Shown here piece after piece: positions 1 to 7,827 of a DNA stretch of 8,254 nt; position 1 is the stretch's first letter; every line of letters starts with the position of its first letter. The translations under genes were made by a program, and so were the position numbers. The notes beneath the pieces were generated by a model that was given only the letters and a program-made list of their open reading frames with translations, did not search any database and was not told the DNA's origin. The stretch is from IMG/VR virus record IMGVR_UViG_2565956626_000015. One strand, 5' to 3'. This DNA is from a virus (lineage: Duplodnaviria; Heunggongvirae; Uroviricota; Caudoviricetes).

Positions 1-34
1 GTTCAGTTGGTTCAGTTGGTTCAATTTGTAAAGA
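1..34. repeat. Left terminal inverted repeat, perfect 34-bp partner of 8221-8254
   Basis: Bases 1-34 (GTTCAGTTGGTTCAGTTGGTTCAATTTGTAAAGA) are the exact reverse complement of 8221-8254, compared by hand. They contain two contiguous GTTGGTTCA units (6-14, 15-23) preceded by a partial unit GTTCA. Confidence 0.9.
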
Positions 35-66
35 TCGTTGTTTTTATTGTGTTTTTTCTGAAATAT

Positions 67-117
67 TGAACCAACATCAACTCATTTTGAACCAACACAG
101 CCCAGCTCTGAACCAAC
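67..117 (+). repeat. Iteron array: three direct TGAACCAAC copies at 67-75, 88-96, 109-117
   Basis: Three exact 9-mers start exactly 21 bp apart (two helical turns), in opposite orientation to the two terminal copies at 6-23. This is typical of arrays of protein-binding sites. Confidence 0.8.
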
Positions 118-164: not shown

Positions 165-203
165 TTGAGCGTATAACAGTGTTATACAGTGGTATACTGT
201 ATG
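165..203 (+). promoter_or_regulatory. Putative promoter/operator upstream of the Mnt-like gene: three tandem 10-bp repeats
   Basis: 171-180 GTATAACAGT, 181-190 GTTATACAGT, 191-200 GGTATACTGT give ACAGT/ACTGT pentamers at 176, 186, 196. TATAACAGTGTTATA is a dyad, and -10-like hexamers TATAAC (173-178) and TATACT (193-198) lie within it. The -35 element could not be placed confidently. Confidence 0.4.
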
Positions 204-219
204 GATATTACTCACTGAT

Positions 220-663
220 ATGGTCTTTGCAATGAGCAAATCTAATCTGGTCGCGTTCCGCATCCCATCTGAATTGCAGGATGAGTTTAATCGGTCTGTT
301 CTCGCTTCTGGAGGGGATAAAACCTCCTGGCTTGTTGATGCGATTCGCATGAAGCTGGGACAGCCGGAAAAGTCTATTGATTCACGAATGCTTGGGCTGG
401 TGGAGCGCATGGAAAAAGCCGCTGCGTCGCTTATTGCCGGAAAGCCGAACATCCCACCAAAGCCATATAACGAAACGGCAGTTATAAAGATCATTGCCGA
501 TACCATCCGACAGGGGTTTGATAATGGGCGTGTGATAGCGGAACGGCTCAATGAAGCAGGCTATCAAACAAAAGCTGGTAAAGCATGGGATAAAGACATT
601 TACAGCGCGTGGAAGCGTCAGGGAAGCAATGCTGAAAAGTTATCAGTGGCTCTAAGAATGTAG
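220..663 (+). CDS. DNA-binding protein with N-terminal Arc/Mnt-type RHH domain and C-terminal serine-recombinase-type DNA-binding motif (147 aa; alternative start ATG 232)
   Basis: N-terminus (LVAFRIPSELQDEF...GGDKTSWLVDAIRMKL) fits the RHH pattern beta-strand/helix/G-x-S-T/helix seen in P22 Arc and Mnt (FNFRMPMEV...GRSMNSELL). C-terminus (VIAERLNEAGYQTKAGKAWDKDIYSAWKRQG) resembles the conserved motif of the recombinase domain of large serine recombinases. No clear Shine-Dalgarno, so the start is uncertain. Confidence 0.65.
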   Translation: MVFAMSKSNLVAFRIPSELQDEFNRSVLASGGDKTSWLVDAIRMKLGQPEKSIDSRMLGLVERMEKAAASLIAGKPNIPPKPYNETAVIKIIADTIRQGFDNGRVIAERLNEAGYQTKAGKAWDKDIYSAWKRQGSNAEKLSVALRM

Positions 664-679
664 CCCTATATTTTGATTT

Positions 680-1057
680 TTAGACGTGCTTGGAGAACAG
701 GTAGCGTGCCATCACTAAAACAATGCCAAAGACTTCAGCGAGGGTTCCCCCCATAAATAGGTTTATAACGAAATCACTAAAATGGAGCAGTTTTGCTCCA
801 ATAAGGACAAAAATCCCATTCATAACTAATAGCTGGCCTATCAGAATGCCGATAAACCACCGAGCAAACATTTTTTTCAGTTTTGTGTCTGTTTTTAAAT
901 CTTTTGTTTTTGCACGCTGATGGGCTTTGGCTGGATCCTCATCATTTAGATGTGTGAGGGTTTTTGCTGATGGTGATGAGCCAGAGGCTGGTTCACCTCT
1001 GGCTTGTCTTGCCGCTTGCTTTAGTTTTTCAGATATAGCGTAAGATCTAGACGTCAT
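680..1057 (-). CDS. Small membrane protein, 125 aa: charged Lys/Pro/Ala-rich cytoplasmic N-terminal tail plus two predicted TM helices
   Basis: Hydrophobic segments WFIGILIGQLLVMNGIFVLIGA and INLFMGGTLAEVFGIVLVMARYLF follow a roughly 60-aa hydrophilic N-terminus. Its ATG lies 3 nt after the stop of the upstream peptidase gene (TGA-GTA-ATG), indicating translational coupling. Confidence 0.7.
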   Translation of the reverse strand: MTSRSYAISEKLKQAARQARGEPASGSSPSAKTLTHLNDEDPAKAHQRAKTKDLKTDTKLKKMFARWFIGILIGQLLVMNGIFVLIGAKLLHFSDFVINLFMGGTLAEVFGIVLVMARYLFSKHV

Positions 1058-1060
1058 TAC

Positions 1061-1549
1061 TCATCGAAGCCCTAAATTCTTTAGGCGATAACGTATAGCA
1101 TCATCGGATACACCAAAATAGGAAGCCATCATTACTGGTGCATATCCTGCATTGTTGAGGCGTCGAACCTCTTTTTCTGGCATGAGAAGACATGCTGCAA
1201 AGTTATTGGCGAATATTTCTTCGCTGTCTACACCTTGGCTTGCCAGTTTTCCGCGGTAATCAACAAACTCATATTCAAGTGGCTGACCGTTCTCAGTTCG
1301 TTTGACGTAATGCCCTAACTCATGCGCACACGTAAATCGTTTGCGCACGTTACTATCATTACGATTGAGTATGATTACTGGATCTTGTTCTGGCTCTTTC
1401 AGCAATGCGCCTGAAACATCATCATCAAGCGTGGTTTCAACAACATCCAACCCTAACTCATTGGCAATCCATACTGGATCAACCGGGAATTTCCTATCGC
1501 CCCAGATATCTTTCAAGAGGGCATGTGCAGATGTATTCGACATGTTCAC
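1061..1549 (-). CDS. ImmA/IrrE-family zinc metallopeptidase (Peptidase_M78/DUF955-like), 162 aa, standalone without HTH domain
   Basis: HExxH motif in CAHELGHYV with downstream FANNFAACLLMPEKEV, characteristic of ImmA/IrrE peptidases. Strong Shine-Dalgarno (AAGGAGGTGA) sits 5 nt upstream of the ATG at 1549. Confidence 0.85.
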   Translation of the reverse strand: MNMSNTSAHALLKDIWGDRKFPVDPVWIANELGLDVVETTLDDDVSGALLKEPEQDPVIILNRNDSNVRKRFTCAHELGHYVKRTENGQPLEYEFVDYRGKLASQGVDSEEIFANNFAACLLMPEKEVRRLNNAGYAPVMMASYFGVSDDAIRYRLKNLGLR

Positions 1550-1630
1550 CTCCTTTGATTATGGTTAAATAGTCGAAATTTTCACCACTTCCCTTGTGGA
1601 TATATTTACATATAAAAGGTAACTAGTCAC

Positions 1631-1642
1631 TAACCAACACAA
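1631..1642 (+). promoter_or_regulatory. Internal iteron-like site TAACCAACACAA in the peptidase operon upstream region
   Basis: AACCAACACAA (11 nt) exactly matches the terminal iteron copy read as the reverse complement of 8144-8154. It lies in the intergenic region between the peptidase start (1549) and the divergent mini-ORF (1725). Confidence 0.3.
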
Positions 1643-1724
1643 ATCTTTTTGAAGACAGATGGGGGGTGTTGAACGGTTTTTAAATGATTTCTTTGATTTT
1701 TAACAGCAATAAGGAGCATTTTTA

Positions 1725-1778
1725 ATGAAATTAGACGTTGATAATAACTTTTTGAGCAATCTTTACATATCATGGTAG
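1725..1778 (+). CDS. Mini-ORF, 17 aa (MKLDVDNNFLSNLYISW), with strong RBS; possible leader peptide or relic N-terminus
   Basis: AAGGAG at 1711-1716 lies 8 nt upstream of the ATG at 1725. It is divergent from the peptidase operon, and no long ORF follows. Confidence 0.2.
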   Translation: MKLDVDNNFLSNLYISW

Positions 1779-2000
1779 CCTTCTATGCTGTTTTTCCAAC
1801 TAAAAGATTGGCACATTTATCCGCTGGTAGTGGCGTTTTTTCGCCGCCAGCGCCTCTCTGGTTCCATTCCTTACATCTGTTCAAATTCAGCAACCCTTGC
1901 CGCGATCTTGCCGTTATCGAGAAGCTCTTTCGCTTTTCGGTTAATACTATCGGTCTTCATATTGCCAGCAGCATACGCCATCCGATAATTTCGATGCTAC

Positions 2001-2380
2001 GCGCGCGTACTTGTCGCAAAATATCAGGCAAAGGCCAGATTCAGAAAGTCGTGATAACCACCAGCACAACATGAGAGGTCATGTAACGCGATTTATCACA
2101 CCAGATACATGTGATTGGTGTACCCGCATAAAACATCGTCATAGCGCGTCCTGTGCGCATATACGCCGATAATCAACACATCACCACCACTCTGTCTTAT
2201 GTAGAGAACAGTTTTATGGTGCTCCCCGCCATCGTGTGCGTACTGGTCGGACGCAGTTCAAAAAATTTTGCAACTGATACCCCTCGCGCGCGTACTGGTC
2301 ACGAAATTGGTGTTTTGCTGTGGCAGTGATATCAGAAAAATCTTCCTGTTTCACATAAAGCGGATATGCGCGTACTGTAA
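2001..2380. repeat. Dispersed repeat family with core GCGCGTACTGG, four copies
   Basis: GCGCGCGTACTTGTC at 2001-2015, GTGCGTACTGGTC at 2236-2248, GCGCGCGTACTGGTC at 2286-2300 and GCGCGTACTG at 2368-2377, all in a stretch lacking a convincing ORF. Confidence 0.5.
2096..2310 (-). pseudogene. Possible frameshifted remnant of a RelE/ParE-family toxin gene
   Basis: Minus-strand translation gives ...TVLYIRQSGGDVLIIGVYAHRTRYDD..., resembling the conserved RelE/ParE C-terminus (Y-R-x-x-x-x-V-x-I-L-x-V-x-H-R-x-x-Y). The upstream part is in another frame with no intact start. Hand translation only. Confidence 0.2.
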
Positions 2381-2493
2381 CGGCCCCATCAACGGGGATC
2401 GGATTTGAAATCCTGACCCAAGCTATGTACCAAATGCCATGTCTTGGATATATGATGATTGCCATTCTAAACAAAGCTAAAGGGAGGGTTGGT

Positions 2494-2844
2494 GTGAATG
2501 CTCAGGCTGTCATCATGGTTTTCCTTGGTCTGATTGTCGCAAAACTATATCCAGACTGGTGGAAAGGGGCATTAGCAACTGTCGCCATCTATTTGCTTTT
2601 ATCCGTCGTTAAGCGATCGTTCGTTAAGACCGTAAATCAAGCAAAACGTTTCTCATTTAAGAATTTAATAAACTATATTACTGGGCTTATTTTTTGCCTT
2701 TCAATTTTGATCGCTTCAGCTTTTTTGCCCGTATCAATAGCTAATTTTTTTGGCGCACCATATGAGGTAGGTTATCTATTCTCTGTTTTTTGTCTTGTTC
2801 TTTCCCTTCTTTACCTATGGATGAGAGCAAAGAACAAAAATTAG
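2494..2844 (+). CDS. Small polytopic membrane protein, about 4 TM helices (116 aa from GTG 2494; 139 aa if ATG 2425)
   Basis: Strong Shine-Dalgarno (AAAGGGAGGG, 2478-2487) precedes the in-frame GTG at 2494, whereas the ATG at 2425 has none. Four hydrophobic segments are present. It is convergent with the 701-aa gene, in the position P22-like phages use for superinfection-exclusion morons. Confidence 0.6.
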   Translation: MNAQAVIMVFLGLIVAKLYPDWWKGALATVAIYLLLSVVKRSFVKTVNQAKRFSFKNLINYITGLIFCLSILIASAFLPVSIANFFGAPYEVGYLFSVFCLVLSLLYLWMRAKNKN

Positions 2845-2858
2845 CCATCCGTGGCTAA
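2829..2858 (-). terminator. Putative intrinsic terminator after the 701-aa gene (minus strand), in the convergent gap
   Basis: Inverted repeat TTAGCCA-tccg-TGGCTAA (2841-2858) is followed on the minus strand by TTTTTGTTCTTT. The stem is short and GC-poor, so strength is doubtful. Confidence 0.3.
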
Positions 2859-2862
2859 CCAG

Positions 2863-4968
2863 TTATTGAGCTTCTTTTTGTGATGCCTGTGCGACTCTGG
2901 TGAGCGATTGTGTGACCGTACTGATCGCTCTGTCATATGCTGTGCTACCTTTTGGTGTATTTGCCAGACGTAACAAGGCATTTCGTATAACAGGGCTTTC
3001 GTATGCCTTCGCTGCTCCGCCTACGGCACCAGCAGCAGGAACAACAAACGCAGCTGTTTTTAGCATCCCCGCTAATACTGCTGCGTTTATGATGCCACCA
3101 CCAACTAACAATCCATAAAGCTGCTGACCATTTAAGTTTTGAACGTTCGCTTTTGCCGCGTGTCTTGTATCGTTGAGGTATTTAATAACGCCGTCCAGTT
3201 CCTTTCCATGTACGCCTTTAAAGAAAGTTGCTGATTGCTTCCTGTTCCGGTGTAACGCATTAATAAACTTCTCAACACTGATATTTCCAGACGGATCAGT
3301 CGCCTTATCTACAGCATTCTGAACTATGGCTGCTCGTGCGTTTTGCCTACCATTGTCATCCAGAAGCCTGTAAAGCTGAGAACGTTCTGATGGGCTTTGG
3401 CTAAAAACGAGTTTTGTTACATCCTCAGGCGTGGCCTTGCCGCTGGCTATTGCCTTTTGAACGCGCGTTCTTCCCATCATGTCATTGAATTTAGACCATG
3501 AGCGATCAACCCTTGCCATATTAATGGCTTCGTCTGCTCCAAGATTTTTGGCTACGGCTTTTTTCATATCCGCCGTATATGCCTTGTAGATAATATCGCT
3601 GGCTTTCTGGAGCGTATCTTTATCAACAGTGTCAGATGACGCCATAAATCGCTTTCGAAGATCGGTTCTGTTTTCCCTCGCCAGACGCAGGTCATTTGGT
3701 CCGCTGGTGATATCGTCTTTAAATTGCTGCAAGACTTTTACCGCGGCTCTATCCTGAGATTTGCCCGGGCGGCTTAACACGGCAATCTGATTGTCGATAG
3801 CTTTTACCGTGTTTGAGAGATCGACAGGGGTATCCCCCATAGCGTCAATTATGCGGTTATATCGCTTTCCTGCTGCCTCAATGAATTTTTGTTGCCCTTT
3901 AGTCGCAGATTCATAAAGCTGTTTATCAGAAATGCCACCCAGACCATCGCTAAATGTTCTGACTAAATTTTCTCGTGCTTGTTGTTGATTCAGCCGATTC
4001 TTACCGGTTCCAAAAAAAGGAACTCTTTCGCCTAATGTCTGAGCCTGACTCTGCATAAAGGTTTTATCTTTCAGCATGTCACTGGTCATTAACGGCAGAT
4101 TTCTTTCCGATGCAAAGTCGACAGCAGCCTTTGCTTCAGGCGACATATCACCACGAACAGCCCTCGAAACCGCACTCGCTGTATTTTCCAGCCCCTTACC
4201 AATACCACCAATGCCAGCAGAAATTACCGTTTGTAACGGATCAATATCTTCTCCACCAGCAAGGCTGGTGGCTCCCTGTAGTGCTAAATCTGTAGCTGCT
4301 GATTTTCCTATGGCACCAAGCACCGTTCCAGCCCTGCCCGCTGGTGTAAACGCCAACGCATTAGCAAGAAACGAAGTCAGGTCTTGCGGTGATAAACCCG
4401 GTTTGTTTAGGGCATAATCACCTGATGGCAGAGAAACGATAGTATTCCCCTTCTCATCCTGCCTTAATGTCGCCCCCATTCCCTGGAGAATCTTTTCCTG
4501 AGACGCGTCAGAGCCGAAAAGTTGAGACCATCCAGCCTTTAGGGCATCCATGCTTAGTGAGTTCAATTCTGGGGCAGAGGCGACATTTTGCAGTCTCTCC
4601 ATCTCTGGAGTCATTCGGCTTTCGCCTGTTATAGCATCCCGCATCGCAGCCCCAAGACTGGCTCCCTGTTCTGCTGAACGCTCAAGCCCCTCTCTTTGCT
4701 GAGTAGCTAACTTTGCATACCCTGACGCAAGAGAATTATCAGATGATGTATGTTGAATATTTTGAGTTGCTGATTGGGATCGGTCTATTTCATTCGTTGA
4801 TGGTAGTGGATAGGCAGCATAAAAAGCCTGCTTAGCCTGCTCTACACTTTCTCCGGCTTGCGGGGCCACGACTTCATTGAAGTATTGCTCCTGAGCCTGC
4901 GCTTTTTGTTCTGGTGCTAACGCCTGATACTGTGGAGAGGCGATAACATCTTTCCATGCTTTAGCCAT
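2863..4968 (-). CDS. Phage internal/ejection protein-like, 701 aa (P22 gp16-like by position and composition)
   Basis: Last gene of a four-gene coupled operon. Gln/Ala-rich with a Gly/Ala-rich hydrophobic C-terminal segment (LVGGGIINAAVLAGMLKTAAFVVPAAGAVGGAAKA). Its start overlaps the upstream stop (TAATG). Confidence 0.5.
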   Translation of the reverse strand: MAKAWKDVIASPQYQALAPEQKAQAQEQYFNEVVAPQAGESVEQAKQAFYAAYPLPSTNEIDRSQSATQNIQHTSSDNSLASGYAKLATQQREGLERSAEQGASLGAAMRDAITGESRMTPEMERLQNVASAPELNSLSMDALKAGWSQLFGSDASQEKILQGMGATLRQDEKGNTIVSLPSGDYALNKPGLSPQDLTSFLANALAFTPAGRAGTVLGAIGKSAATDLALQGATSLAGGEDIDPLQTVISAGIGGIGKGLENTASAVSRAVRGDMSPEAKAAVDFASERNLPLMTSDMLKDKTFMQSQAQTLGERVPFFGTGKNRLNQQQARENLVRTFSDGLGGISDKQLYESATKGQQKFIEAAGKRYNRIIDAMGDTPVDLSNTVKAIDNQIAVLSRPGKSQDRAAVKVLQQFKDDITSGPNDLRLARENRTDLRKRFMASSDTVDKDTLQKASDIIYKAYTADMKKAVAKNLGADEAINMARVDRSWSKFNDMMGRTRVQKAIASGKATPEDVTKLVFSQSPSERSQLYRLLDDNGRQNARAAIVQNAVDKATDPSGNISVEKFINALHRNRKQSATFFKGVHGKELDGVIKYLNDTRHAAKANVQNLNGQQLYGLLVGGGIINAAVLAGMLKTAAFVVPAAGAVGGAAKAYESPVIRNALLRLANTPKGSTAYDRAISTVTQSLTRVAQASQKEAQ

Positions 4969-6389
4969 TAATCACCCCATAGTGAAGAAAAGTTACTGCT
5001 GGCTGCTGGCTGTGATACCTGCTCAGATTGCGGCAATGTCTGCGACGAAGAAGAAGTTCCTCTGTCAACTGCTGAAATAACCCGCAAAGCATCATAAGCT
5101 CGACCAGAAGCAGCTTTCAGCGAATTGAACTGGTTTTCCATCTTCCGGCGCTTGGTATCAATGGTTTTTGTGGAGTCGCCAGGCTGAGGGAAATACATTT
5201 GATAATATTTTGACATTTCAGCAGGTACGATAGCTGCCCCTGTTTCCTGACGGAGTATTGCCATTATTGCGTCATTAGCATTAACAACGTATTGCTGCTC
5301 TGTTGGGCTGAGCGTTAAGTTAGCCAGCGTCCCATTACCCAAAGCATTATTAATGACCGCCACTCGCTGTGGGCTAAGCTGGTCTTTCAGTGTATCTATT
5401 GAATCAAGAGCATCCCTAACCCTGTATGCAAATCCAGCAGCTTTTTTAGCCCCTTCTGGCGACTTTTCCATGATCTTTTGGGCTGTTGGCAAAGCTATTG
5501 GACGAAATCCATCTCCAGATATTGGCTGGTTTAGTTTTCCCTGCTCTTCACTTCCGTCTGTGTAGTATTTTGTGACAGTGCCATCATCGTTTTCTCTAAC
5601 ACTCATTAATTTTTTGGCGTTTGTATTAATTCCAGCCGCTGCCGCAAATGCCGCCGCCCCCTCTGGATCCGCCTTTAACATTTGAGCGTACTGATTGTAA
5701 TTCTGCATTGCTGCTGTTGGTGCATATGCTGACGTTAACGCATTTGCTCGGCTAATATCCTGCCCTCTCGCCTGAAGTGCTTCGCCAGCCTGATTGCTGC
5801 GGATTGTCTCTGCCAACTTGCCACGCTCAATATCCCGACCTTCCATTTGATCTTTGATATCGAAATACTTCTCATGACCGAGAGAAAACAGTGCCATACT
5901 ACCAGCAAGCCGCTGGAACCACTGTGGATCATTAACATGCATTTCGGCAACAGACTCAGGAGAAATTCCCAAGCGACGCATTTCATCTTCGTTATCTGCT
6001 ATGAATTTTCCAAATGCCCCAGTTCCGAGCGAAGATGCGATTTGAGCACTAGTCGCAAGATGACCAATAGAATTTCTCTGGTCGTCATCAATAAAGCCCA
6101 TCCCTTTCTGAACGCTTTCAAATTCTTCTGGATACTCAGAAATAAGACTGCGCATTTTGTTTCTGTCTCCAGACTCAAAAGCCCCGGCATATGCTTTCTG
6201 AAACTCTGCTTTACGCTGTTGTTGACGTGCCTGCTGATTAATCTCAGCAACGCCTCTTAGCCCCTGTAGCGCCATTAAACCTACGTTTGGCTGCTGCTGA
6301 TACTGCACAGGCTGAGGAACGGAAGAACGAGGAGCATTATCATTTTGCGGTGCCATGCTAGGCAGCCCGCCAAGTTGCCATGTCGCCAT
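4968..6389 (-). CDS. Phage internal/ejection protein-like, 473 aa (P22 gp20-like by size and position)
   Basis: Overlaps both neighbours by TAATG start/stop. Gln-rich and largely helical in composition. Size is close to P22 gp20 as I recall it (about 471 aa). Confidence 0.5.
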   Translation of the reverse strand: MATWQLGGLPSMAPQNDNAPRSSVPQPVQYQQQPNVGLMALQGLRGVAEINQQARQQQRKAEFQKAYAGAFESGDRNKMRSLISEYPEEFESVQKGMGFIDDDQRNSIGHLATSAQIASSLGTGAFGKFIADNEDEMRRLGISPESVAEMHVNDPQWFQRLAGSMALFSLGHEKYFDIKDQMEGRDIERGKLAETIRSNQAGEALQARGQDISRANALTSAYAPTAAMQNYNQYAQMLKADPEGAAAFAAAAGINTNAKKLMSVRENDDGTVTKYYTDGSEEQGKLNQPISGDGFRPIALPTAQKIMEKSPEGAKKAAGFAYRVRDALDSIDTLKDQLSPQRVAVINNALGNGTLANLTLSPTEQQYVVNANDAIMAILRQETGAAIVPAEMSKYYQMYFPQPGDSTKTIDTKRRKMENQFNSLKAASGRAYDALRVISAVDRGTSSSSQTLPQSEQVSQPAASSNFSSLWGD

Positions 6390-7066
6390 TAGAATCCAAG
6401 CCCCCCAACAAGACCAATAAGCCCACCACCAATAGCGCCGGCCGCAGTACCTATTCCAGGAACAACGGAACCAAGTTGCGCACCCGCTAAAGCGCCTGAT
6501 GCTGCCCCACCAATACCACGCGCAAGACTGGATGGCTGCTGCGCCTGACCTGCACGAATAGCGCCAAGCCCCTGCAAGAGTTGCCCGGTATTATTGGCGT
6601 AGTTTTGCCCTGCTGTTGCCTGCCCTGATGCCGCATTCATCCCGACATTTAGCAGGTTTCCATAATTTTGCATTTGCCCACTAAGCCAATTGTTATAAAG
6701 CATGGGCGCAATGGAAGATAACTGGTTACTGGTAGCTGTTGAGCCAAGCCCCCCGGTAGCTTCTGCTGAGACAAGGTTCTGATAACGGGCCTGATCTGCC
6801 TGTGTTTTATATAAACCAGAACCAAAGAAATCATTCGCGGCTTTATTCTGCCCTTCCAGAGTCATCAGTCCTTGTAGTTGTTGTAAAGCAGGCAATCCGA
6901 CTTCTGCATACGGCTTGAGATTATTCATCACCGTATTCCACTGCTCGCGCTGCAAATCAATTGCCTGCTGCTGGGCCTTCGCCTGAGCTTTAGAGGCACC
7001 ACCATCACCGCCTTTTTCGTATACGGCACGATTGAGATGTTTATGAGCTATATGGGTAATTAACAT
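6389..7066 (-). CDS. Phage internal/ejection protein-like, 225 aa (P22 gp7-like by size and position), with Gly-zipper C-terminus
   Basis: C-terminus GGAASGALAGAQLGSVVPGIGTAAGAIGGGLIGLVGGLGF is a glycine-zipper-like membrane-active segment. Its start overlaps the stop of the upstream gene (ATGTTAA). Confidence 0.5.
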   Translation of the reverse strand: MLITHIAHKHLNRAVYEKGGDGGASKAQAKAQQQAIDLQREQWNTVMNNLKPYAEVGLPALQQLQGLMTLEGQNKAANDFFGSGLYKTQADQARYQNLVSAEATGGLGSTATSNQLSSIAPMLYNNWLSGQMQNYGNLLNVGMNAASGQATAGQNYANNTGQLLQGLGAIRAGQAQQPSSLARGIGGAASGALAGAQLGSVVPGIGTAAGAIGGGLIGLVGGLGF

Positions 7067-7521
7067 TCGCTGAGTTCCTTATATTGTTGCCGAGTTAACT
7101 GATAAAGCGTTACGCCAACTGGCTTACCACATCTGATATATGCATCGGCCAGGTGACCAACACGGGTAGCGCCAAGCAAACGGATAATTGCCCGTCCGTA
7201 TTTGGTGGTGTCAGGAACCATGGTAATGCTGTTAAGGAATGGTGAGTTTTCGAGAAGCCATTTGCAGAATAATCGATGCCCTTGCAGTGCATATTCACCA
7301 CGGAATCCGGGGTCGTACACCGCATGGCATTCAACAACGCTATGCCAGAAGTTACGCACTTCATGAACGCCAGCCAGCACTAATCCTTCGTAGATGCCGA
7401 GATATACCGCATCAGGCTTGATGTAGTACGTGTGCCCCGGCTCAACAATATTTTCGGTATTGCCTGGCTCGTTAAGAAAGGCCTGTAATCGCACAGGGTT
7501 ATCAATAAATTTTAGTTCCAT
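7060..7521 (-). CDS. Hypothetical protein, 153 aa; positional equivalent of P22 gene 14, or alternatively an SOS-controlled antirepressor-like protein
   Basis: ORF is translationally coupled to the downstream 225-aa gene and starts 16 bp after the Arc-like ORF. No recognisable catalytic motif. Confidence 0.6.
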   Translation of the reverse strand: MELKFIDNPVRLQAFLNEPGNTENIVEPGHTYYIKPDAVYLGIYEGLVLAGVHEVRNFWHSVVECHAVYDPGFRGEYALQGHRLFCKWLLENSPFLNSITMVPDTTKYGRAIIRLLGATRVGHLADAYIRCGKPVGVTLYQLTRQQYKELSEC

Positions 7522-7537
7522 GCGATGCCATCCATTT

Positions 7538-7699
7538 TCACATACAGCCTGCCAGCGCCTTATCTATTAACCCTCGTGCAATTTCATGCAGAGTTGGCGC
7601 TACTCCAATTCCTGATTTTTTACGCTGCTCTTCCTGAATTTTCTTTATCGCTTCCATTTGCTTCTCACTTATCAATACCGGCTTTACTGAAATAGCCAT
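7538..7699 (-). CDS. Small Arc/CopG-type RHH DNA-binding protein, 53 aa (MAISVKPVLISEKQMEAIKKIQEEQRKKSGIGVAPTLHEIARGLIDKALAGCM)
   Basis: Not in the supplied ORF track (below its length cutoff); found by hand translation of the minus strand. Shine-Dalgarno AAGGGGG lies 4 nt before the ATG. The beta-strand/helix/G-x-x/helix layout is typical of RHH repressors. Confidence 0.55.
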   Translation of the reverse strand: MAISVKPVLISEKQMEAIKKIQEEQRKKSGIGVAPTLHEIARGLIDKALAGCM

Positions 7700-7712
7700 A
7701 ACGCCCCCTTAG

Positions 7713-7738
7713 AACTGTATAAAACAACAGTTATTATA
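7713..7738 (-). promoter_or_regulatory. LexA (SOS) box-like site CTGT-N8-ACAG abutting a perfect -10 TATAAT, upstream of the Arc-like ORF
   Basis: AACTGTATAAAACAACAGTT (7713-7732) matches the CTGT-N8-ACAG core of the E. coli LexA box consensus TACTGTATATATATACAGTA. The minus-strand TATAAT (complement of 7733-7738) is adjacent, so the box would cover the transcription start. Confidence 0.5.
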
Positions 7739-7790
7739 GTTTCACAAATCGCAATATTCATCATCGTAATTGCAAAATATGAAACAAATA

Positions 7791-7827
7791 GCACAAAAAA
7801 ATGCCACCGCTCAGTAGCTGGTGGCAT
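7791..7827 (-). terminator. Intrinsic terminator (minus strand) upstream of the Arc-like promoter
   Basis: Stem ATGCCACCGCT (7801-7811) pairs with AGC(t)GGTGGCAT (7816-7827) around loop CAGT with one bulge. On the minus strand it is followed by TTTTTTGTGC (complement of 7791-7800). Confidence 0.6.

Follow-up and report, generated by a model that had tools for sequence, protein, structure and literature searches.

Operon I of SaPIbov1 is regulated by LexA (Ubeda et al. 2007, cited in PMC3152322). EcCIMP1, a phage-inducible chromosomal island (PICI) of E. coli MP1, has been mobilised experimentally by the P22-like phage Kapi1 (PMC11773190); a search of that paper by term returned no mention of the promoter elements, ribbon-helix-helix (RHH) regulators and iterons that we describe here. 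The DNA analysed in this study (hereafter "the window", 8254 bp in all) comes from an E. coli satellite of P22-like phages, an EcCIMP1-like PICI, whose post-primase module it represents, and the closest analogue of its right promoter is the LexA-controlled operon I of the SaPIs. The island to which the window belongs shares with EcCIMP1 the family genes int, AlpA, Ant, DUF4222, TOPRIM/DUF927 primase and PerC, and the two also have an identical RHH53 protein and agree in the DUF2824-gp7-gp20 block and in the mirrored iteron arrays. They differ in integration site (tRNA-Thr for EcCIMP1, yicC for the island of the window) and in the gp16-like protein, which in EcCIMP1 has a lytic transglycosylase domain, unlike that of the window. 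In locus L001 the island has a dinD box at a distance of 1 kb.

The window and the motif common to its ends

The genes and flanking arrays of the window are as follows.

1..117: left ori-like iteron array, in which tandem GTTGGTTCA copies are followed by ~45 bp of AT-rich DNA and then by three TGAACCAAC copies (21-bp spacing)
232..663, plus strand: RHH143 gene, the first gene at the left end
2863..7521, minus strand: ejection-protein operon, driven by the right promoter after RHH53
2863-4968, minus strand: gp16-like gene, the last of the right operon
4968-6389, minus strand: gp20-like translocase gene (Pfam Inj_translocase, 3.8e-58)
6389-7066, minus strand: gp7-like gene (Pfam P22_gp7, 6.6e-73)
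7060-7521, minus strand: DUF2824/gp14-like gene (Pfam DUF2824, 2.5e-60)
7538..7699, minus strand: RHH53 gene, at the head of the right operon, for a ribbon-helix-helix protein of 53 aa
8148..8254: right ori-like iteron array, which in the host island directly follows the 3' end of the TOPRIM/DUF927 primase gene

The left iteron array, with 10 perfect copies (a count matched in none of 200 shuffles), is an inverted copy of the right one, and the inverted repeat runs ~10 bp past the window. Within the ejection operon, start and stop codons of the genes overlap or lie no more than 17 bp apart, a PHROG match reads "DNA transfer protein", and identities to Kapi1_055, 056 and 057 are 84%, 58% and 34%.

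An earlier note on this DNA had drawn attention to related motifs at both inward-facing terminal promoters and to an RHH gene at each end, and both observations hold. The quoted strings are present (GTATAACAGTGTTATACAGTGGTATACTGT at 171-200, AACTGTATAAAACAACAGTTAT at 7713-7734; a period-10 array is detected by TRF at 171-197), both terminal genes do encode RHH proteins, and ATACAGT/ACTGTAT has three matches in the 8254 bp (0.68 expected; 7 of 200 shuffles reach three), all of them within the two promoter sites: 184-190 (plus strand), 196-202 (minus) and 7714-7720 (minus). The sites face inward, 30-60 bp 5' of the first codons of the terminal genes (232, plus; 7699, minus), and overlap elements conserved across genera, namely TGnTAnAnT on the left and TATAAT on the right. 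Since neither has a good -35, a simple sigma-70 consensus scan misses both promoters; their assignment is based on conservation, and the transcription starts are predicted.

The left promoter and RHH143

Upstream of RHH143 the following elements can be recognised.

170..188, plus strand: predicted RHH143 operator, boxes CGTATAACA (170-178) and TGTTATACA (180-188), 10 bp apart
190..198, plus strand: left extended -10, consisting of TG (190-191), g and TATACT (193-198), which the earlier note read as a third "repeat", GGTATACTGT
195..202, plus strand: orphan LexA half-site TACTGTAT, over the left -10, without a partner half-site

The two TGT-N3-ACA boxes form the palindrome GTATAAC-N3-GTTATAC (171-187) and span the -35 position, where the sigma-70 scan finds no match, as well as the spacer. 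In every related locus the aligned counterpart of the extended -10 is TGnTATAAT / TGGTAAAAT, and together with the boxes it accounts for almost all conserved columns among 34 distinct homologous promoters. The left -10 happens to hold a LexA half-site as well. A matrix made from RHH143 operators of species other than E. coli reaches 29-30 bits at 170-188, no other position in the window exceeding 9.2 bits, and in almost every locus the operator is confined to the RHH143 promoter. Across 39 loci the sequence of the boxes switches with residues 5, 6 and 8 of the N-terminal strand of RHH143: the strand reads NL[VI]AFR in the 24 loci that have TGTATAACA/TGTTATACA and LSVTFR in the 15 that have two copies of TGTCTTACA, without a single exception. 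Although this co-variation may represent one evolutionary switch between two clades, as opposed to many independent events, it points to autoregulation by RHH143.

In its AF2 model RHH143 folds at the N-terminus into an Arc/Mnt-like ribbon-helix-helix (residues ~1-42), which is followed by a long helix (46-68) and by a confidently modelled C-terminal helical domain (77-143) that has no assigned family. Its N-terminal region superposes on CopG (1ea4) and Arc (1bdv) in Foldseek, as local matches with non-significant overall E-values, and hhalign places it in register with Arc and Mnt at probabilities below 10%; in that register residues 6, 8 and 10 correspond to Q9, N11 and R13 of Arc, and 6 and 8 fall at DNA-contact positions of Arc. 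The family numbers 374 members, has no Pfam domain and bears one source name, "Arc-like DNA binding domain protein".

The resemblance to P22 Arc and Mnt thus comprises the N-terminal strand (MSKSNLVAFRIP vs MSKMPQFNLRWP) and the apparent binding to a pair of neighbouring sub-sites, separated by about one helical turn, that overlap a promoter, and with Mnt also a C-terminal extension and the position of the gene, which is convergent to the gp16-like gene roughly as mnt is placed relative to gene 16 in the P22 gene order. In contrast, no close homology is detectable (nothing by tblastn against phages, below 10% by hhalign), the operator has another sequence, and there is neither a divergent partner promoter nor ant as in P22 immI, the second RHH gene (RHH53) being 7.5 kb off. 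Two RHH143 dimers would bind the boxes at 170-188, one helical turn apart, and, by covering the -35 and spacer, exert negative autoregulation in the manner of Arc and Mnt, with TGgTATACT (190-198) presumably driving RHH143 alone.

The right promoter, LexA and RHH53

At the other end, the elements are these.

7713..7732: LexA (SOS) box AACTGTATAAAACAACAGTT, with the core CTGT-N8-ACAG at 7715-7730
7733..7738, minus strand: right -10 hexamer TATAAT, its columns conserved in 18 aligned homologous promoters
7739..7785, minus strand: two copies of a 17-bp unit (TTTCA/TTGCA-type 5-mers), candidate RHH53 operator
7795..7825, minus strand: intrinsic terminator GCCACC...GGTGGC + T7, upstream of the right promoter and conserved in EcCIMP1

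The terminator insulates the promoter from the primase operon. A weak -35-like ATGAAT (7756-7761) is separated by a 17-nt spacer from the -10, and the LexA box lies directly downstream of the latter, covering the predicted transcription start. Its CTGT-N8-ACAG is the single perfect core in the window (0.06 expected), and on a matrix of 26 E. coli boxes it scores 20.9 bits, compared with a median of 20.2 for those training boxes and a maximum of 16.2 in 200 shuffles; the dinD control reaches 26.8 bits, but is near-identical to one of the training boxes and is therefore a sanity check, not an independent test. Like the SOS boxes of uvrB (AACTGTTTTTTTATCCAGTA) and dinD (AACTGTATTTATATACAGTT), the right box is a 20-bp palindrome of CTGT-N8-ACAG with an AT-rich centre, and like chromosomal E. 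coli boxes it sits over a core promoter and scores in the known range; unlike them, it is carried by a mobile satellite and precedes genes for phage-type virion proteins as opposed to repair functions.

EcCIMP1 has an identical right promoter and LexA box. CTGT-N8-ACAG with other spacers occupies the same position in promoters of the Citrobacter type (16.0 bits) and of the Serratia nevei type (20.8 bits), and at least the looser CTG-N10-CAG is kept in Pantoea sp. 1.19 (19.8 bits), Buttiauxella (17.4 bits), Serratia fonticola (19.3 bits), Photorhabdus (18.0) and Tatumella morbirosei (17.1). About eight homologous promoters (in Klebsiella, Raoultella, Cedecea, Enterobacter, Chimaeribacter, Rahnella and Pantoea KPR) have CTG-N9-CAG, which is one base short for LexA and scores 4.8-7.0 bits, and those of Providencia contain no LexA box; control by LexA is therefore not universal in the family. 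For the right promoter of the window, and for that one only, the matrix scores make LexA a very good candidate regulator, so that the earlier proposal of LexA stands at this end (20.9 bits) and falls at the left one, where the best score in 151-235 is 1.0 bit.

RHH53 structurally resembles TraM, ParD and CopG. The proximal 17-bp unit, ATTGCGATTTGTGAAAC (7739-7755), occupies the -35/-10 spacer, and the distal one, GTTTCATATTTTGCAAT (7769-7785), is its inverted partner with 13 of 17 matches. TTTCA in the distal unit and TGCAA adjoining the -10 are conserved columns among right promoters, kept even in the Providencia promoters that have no LexA box, and neither the left promoter nor Kapi1 contains the units. 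That they are the RHH53 operator is a conjecture; in a mechanism less certain than that of LexA, RHH53 might feed back on the two units in and upstream of the spacer.

One shared regulator or two switches

We consider it probable that the two end promoters are under different systems, LexA on the right and RHH143 autoregulation on the left. The earlier note had proposed instead that one factor, LexA or either RHH protein, binds both ends and controls the two RHH genes together, in a split form of P22 immI. That ATACAGT/ACTGTAT occurs at both promoters and nowhere else in the window, that an RHH gene stands at each end, the mnt-like placement of RHH143 and the LexA-like boxes in left promoters of some relatives (16.7-18.1 bits in Morganella, 15.2 bits in Klebsiella/Raoultella) would all fit such a model, yet it appears very improbable. 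Reciprocal matrices part the sites cleanly: LexA gives 20.9 bits on the right vs 1.0 on the left, and the RHH143 operator 29-30 on the left vs 5.1 on the right, the latter value being below the mean best match of shuffled sequence. In clade-B taxa the left boxes become TGTCTTACA while the right site is still CTGTATAAA, and the two sites therefore do not co-vary. RHH143 and RHH53 are both RHH folds that are unrelated to each other (hhalign probability between the families 0.1%), and EcCIMP1 retains the right promoter with neither the RHH143 gene nor its operator. The immI part of the proposal fares no better, as ant is missing from the window, 7.5 kb separate the two convergent promoters, a search of 50,697 phage records yields no homolog of either RHH protein (by tblastn for RHH143), and the helper phage Kapi1 carries its own immI, dissimilar to the proteins of the window. 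The 7-mer is common to both ends because TGTAT/ATACA is part of two distinct operators, the RHH143 box TGTTATACA as well as the LexA half-site CTGTAT, with the orphan LexA half-site of the left -10 in addition.

One may also consider that both promoters respond to SOS and the ends are co-induced, LexA occupying the full right box and, weakly or aided by RHH143, the left TACTGTAT at 195-202, which is a perfect consensus half-site over the -10. At the homologous left position Klebsiella and Raoultella have a near-complete box, TACTGTATGGATAGACAACA, and Morganella-type promoters, independently, have CACTGGTATAATATCCAGTA over the -10, which suggests that SOS input recurs at the left promoter in the family. 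For the window itself the idea is unlikely: the E. coli left 20-mer scores so low because its second half, ATTACTCA, has no CAG, the ACAGT of the left boxes is not conserved, and LexA dimers require both half-sites for stable binding. We regard it as about equally unlikely that the CTGTATAAA conserved after the right -10 is bound by RHH53 or by another satellite or helper protein, any fit to LexA being secondary. The N9 promoters do keep CTGTATAAATATCAG strongly conserved, and a factor other than LexA could make use of the conserved CTGTATAAATA. However, spacers vary in E. coli, Citrobacter and Serratia nevei (TTGTTTTA, ATCGTTAT, GTCTATAT) around a CTGT/ACAG constant at exactly N8, which is the signature of LexA and not of a factor reading CTGTATAAA; the CAG of the N9 forms is conserved because it is part of the Shine-Dalgarno AGGAGG, and the repeated TTTCA/TTGCA units are more plausible sites for RHH53. 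Finally, the AT content of both regions is high and, by shuffling, three occurrences of a shared 7-mer are only modestly unlikely, but an artefact of promoter composition with no regulatory function is scarcely credible, given that each motif alone far exceeds chance and, unlike its flanks, is conserved across genera, and that protein and operator co-vary.

With two separate switches, then, the right promoter compares with SaPI operon I as follows. Both belong to phage satellites (PICIs) in which an operon of virion-related functions, located after the replication module, has a host LexA operator. They differ in that the host here is Gram-negative, hence the other type of LexA box (CTGT-N8-ACAG), in cargo (P22-type ejection proteins and a gp14-like factor, vs terS and cpm genes in SaPI), and in that the operon of the window is headed by an RHH gene and its control by LexA is predicted. 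Host LexA would keep the ejection-protein operon of the satellite repressed until, upon DNA damage, it cleaves itself, and the signal releasing the right promoter would be the same one that induces the P22-like helper prophage. By virtue of the LexA operator, the operon would thus be wired, as in SaPI operon I, to the SOS signal of the helper prophage, apart from the master regulator of the satellite.

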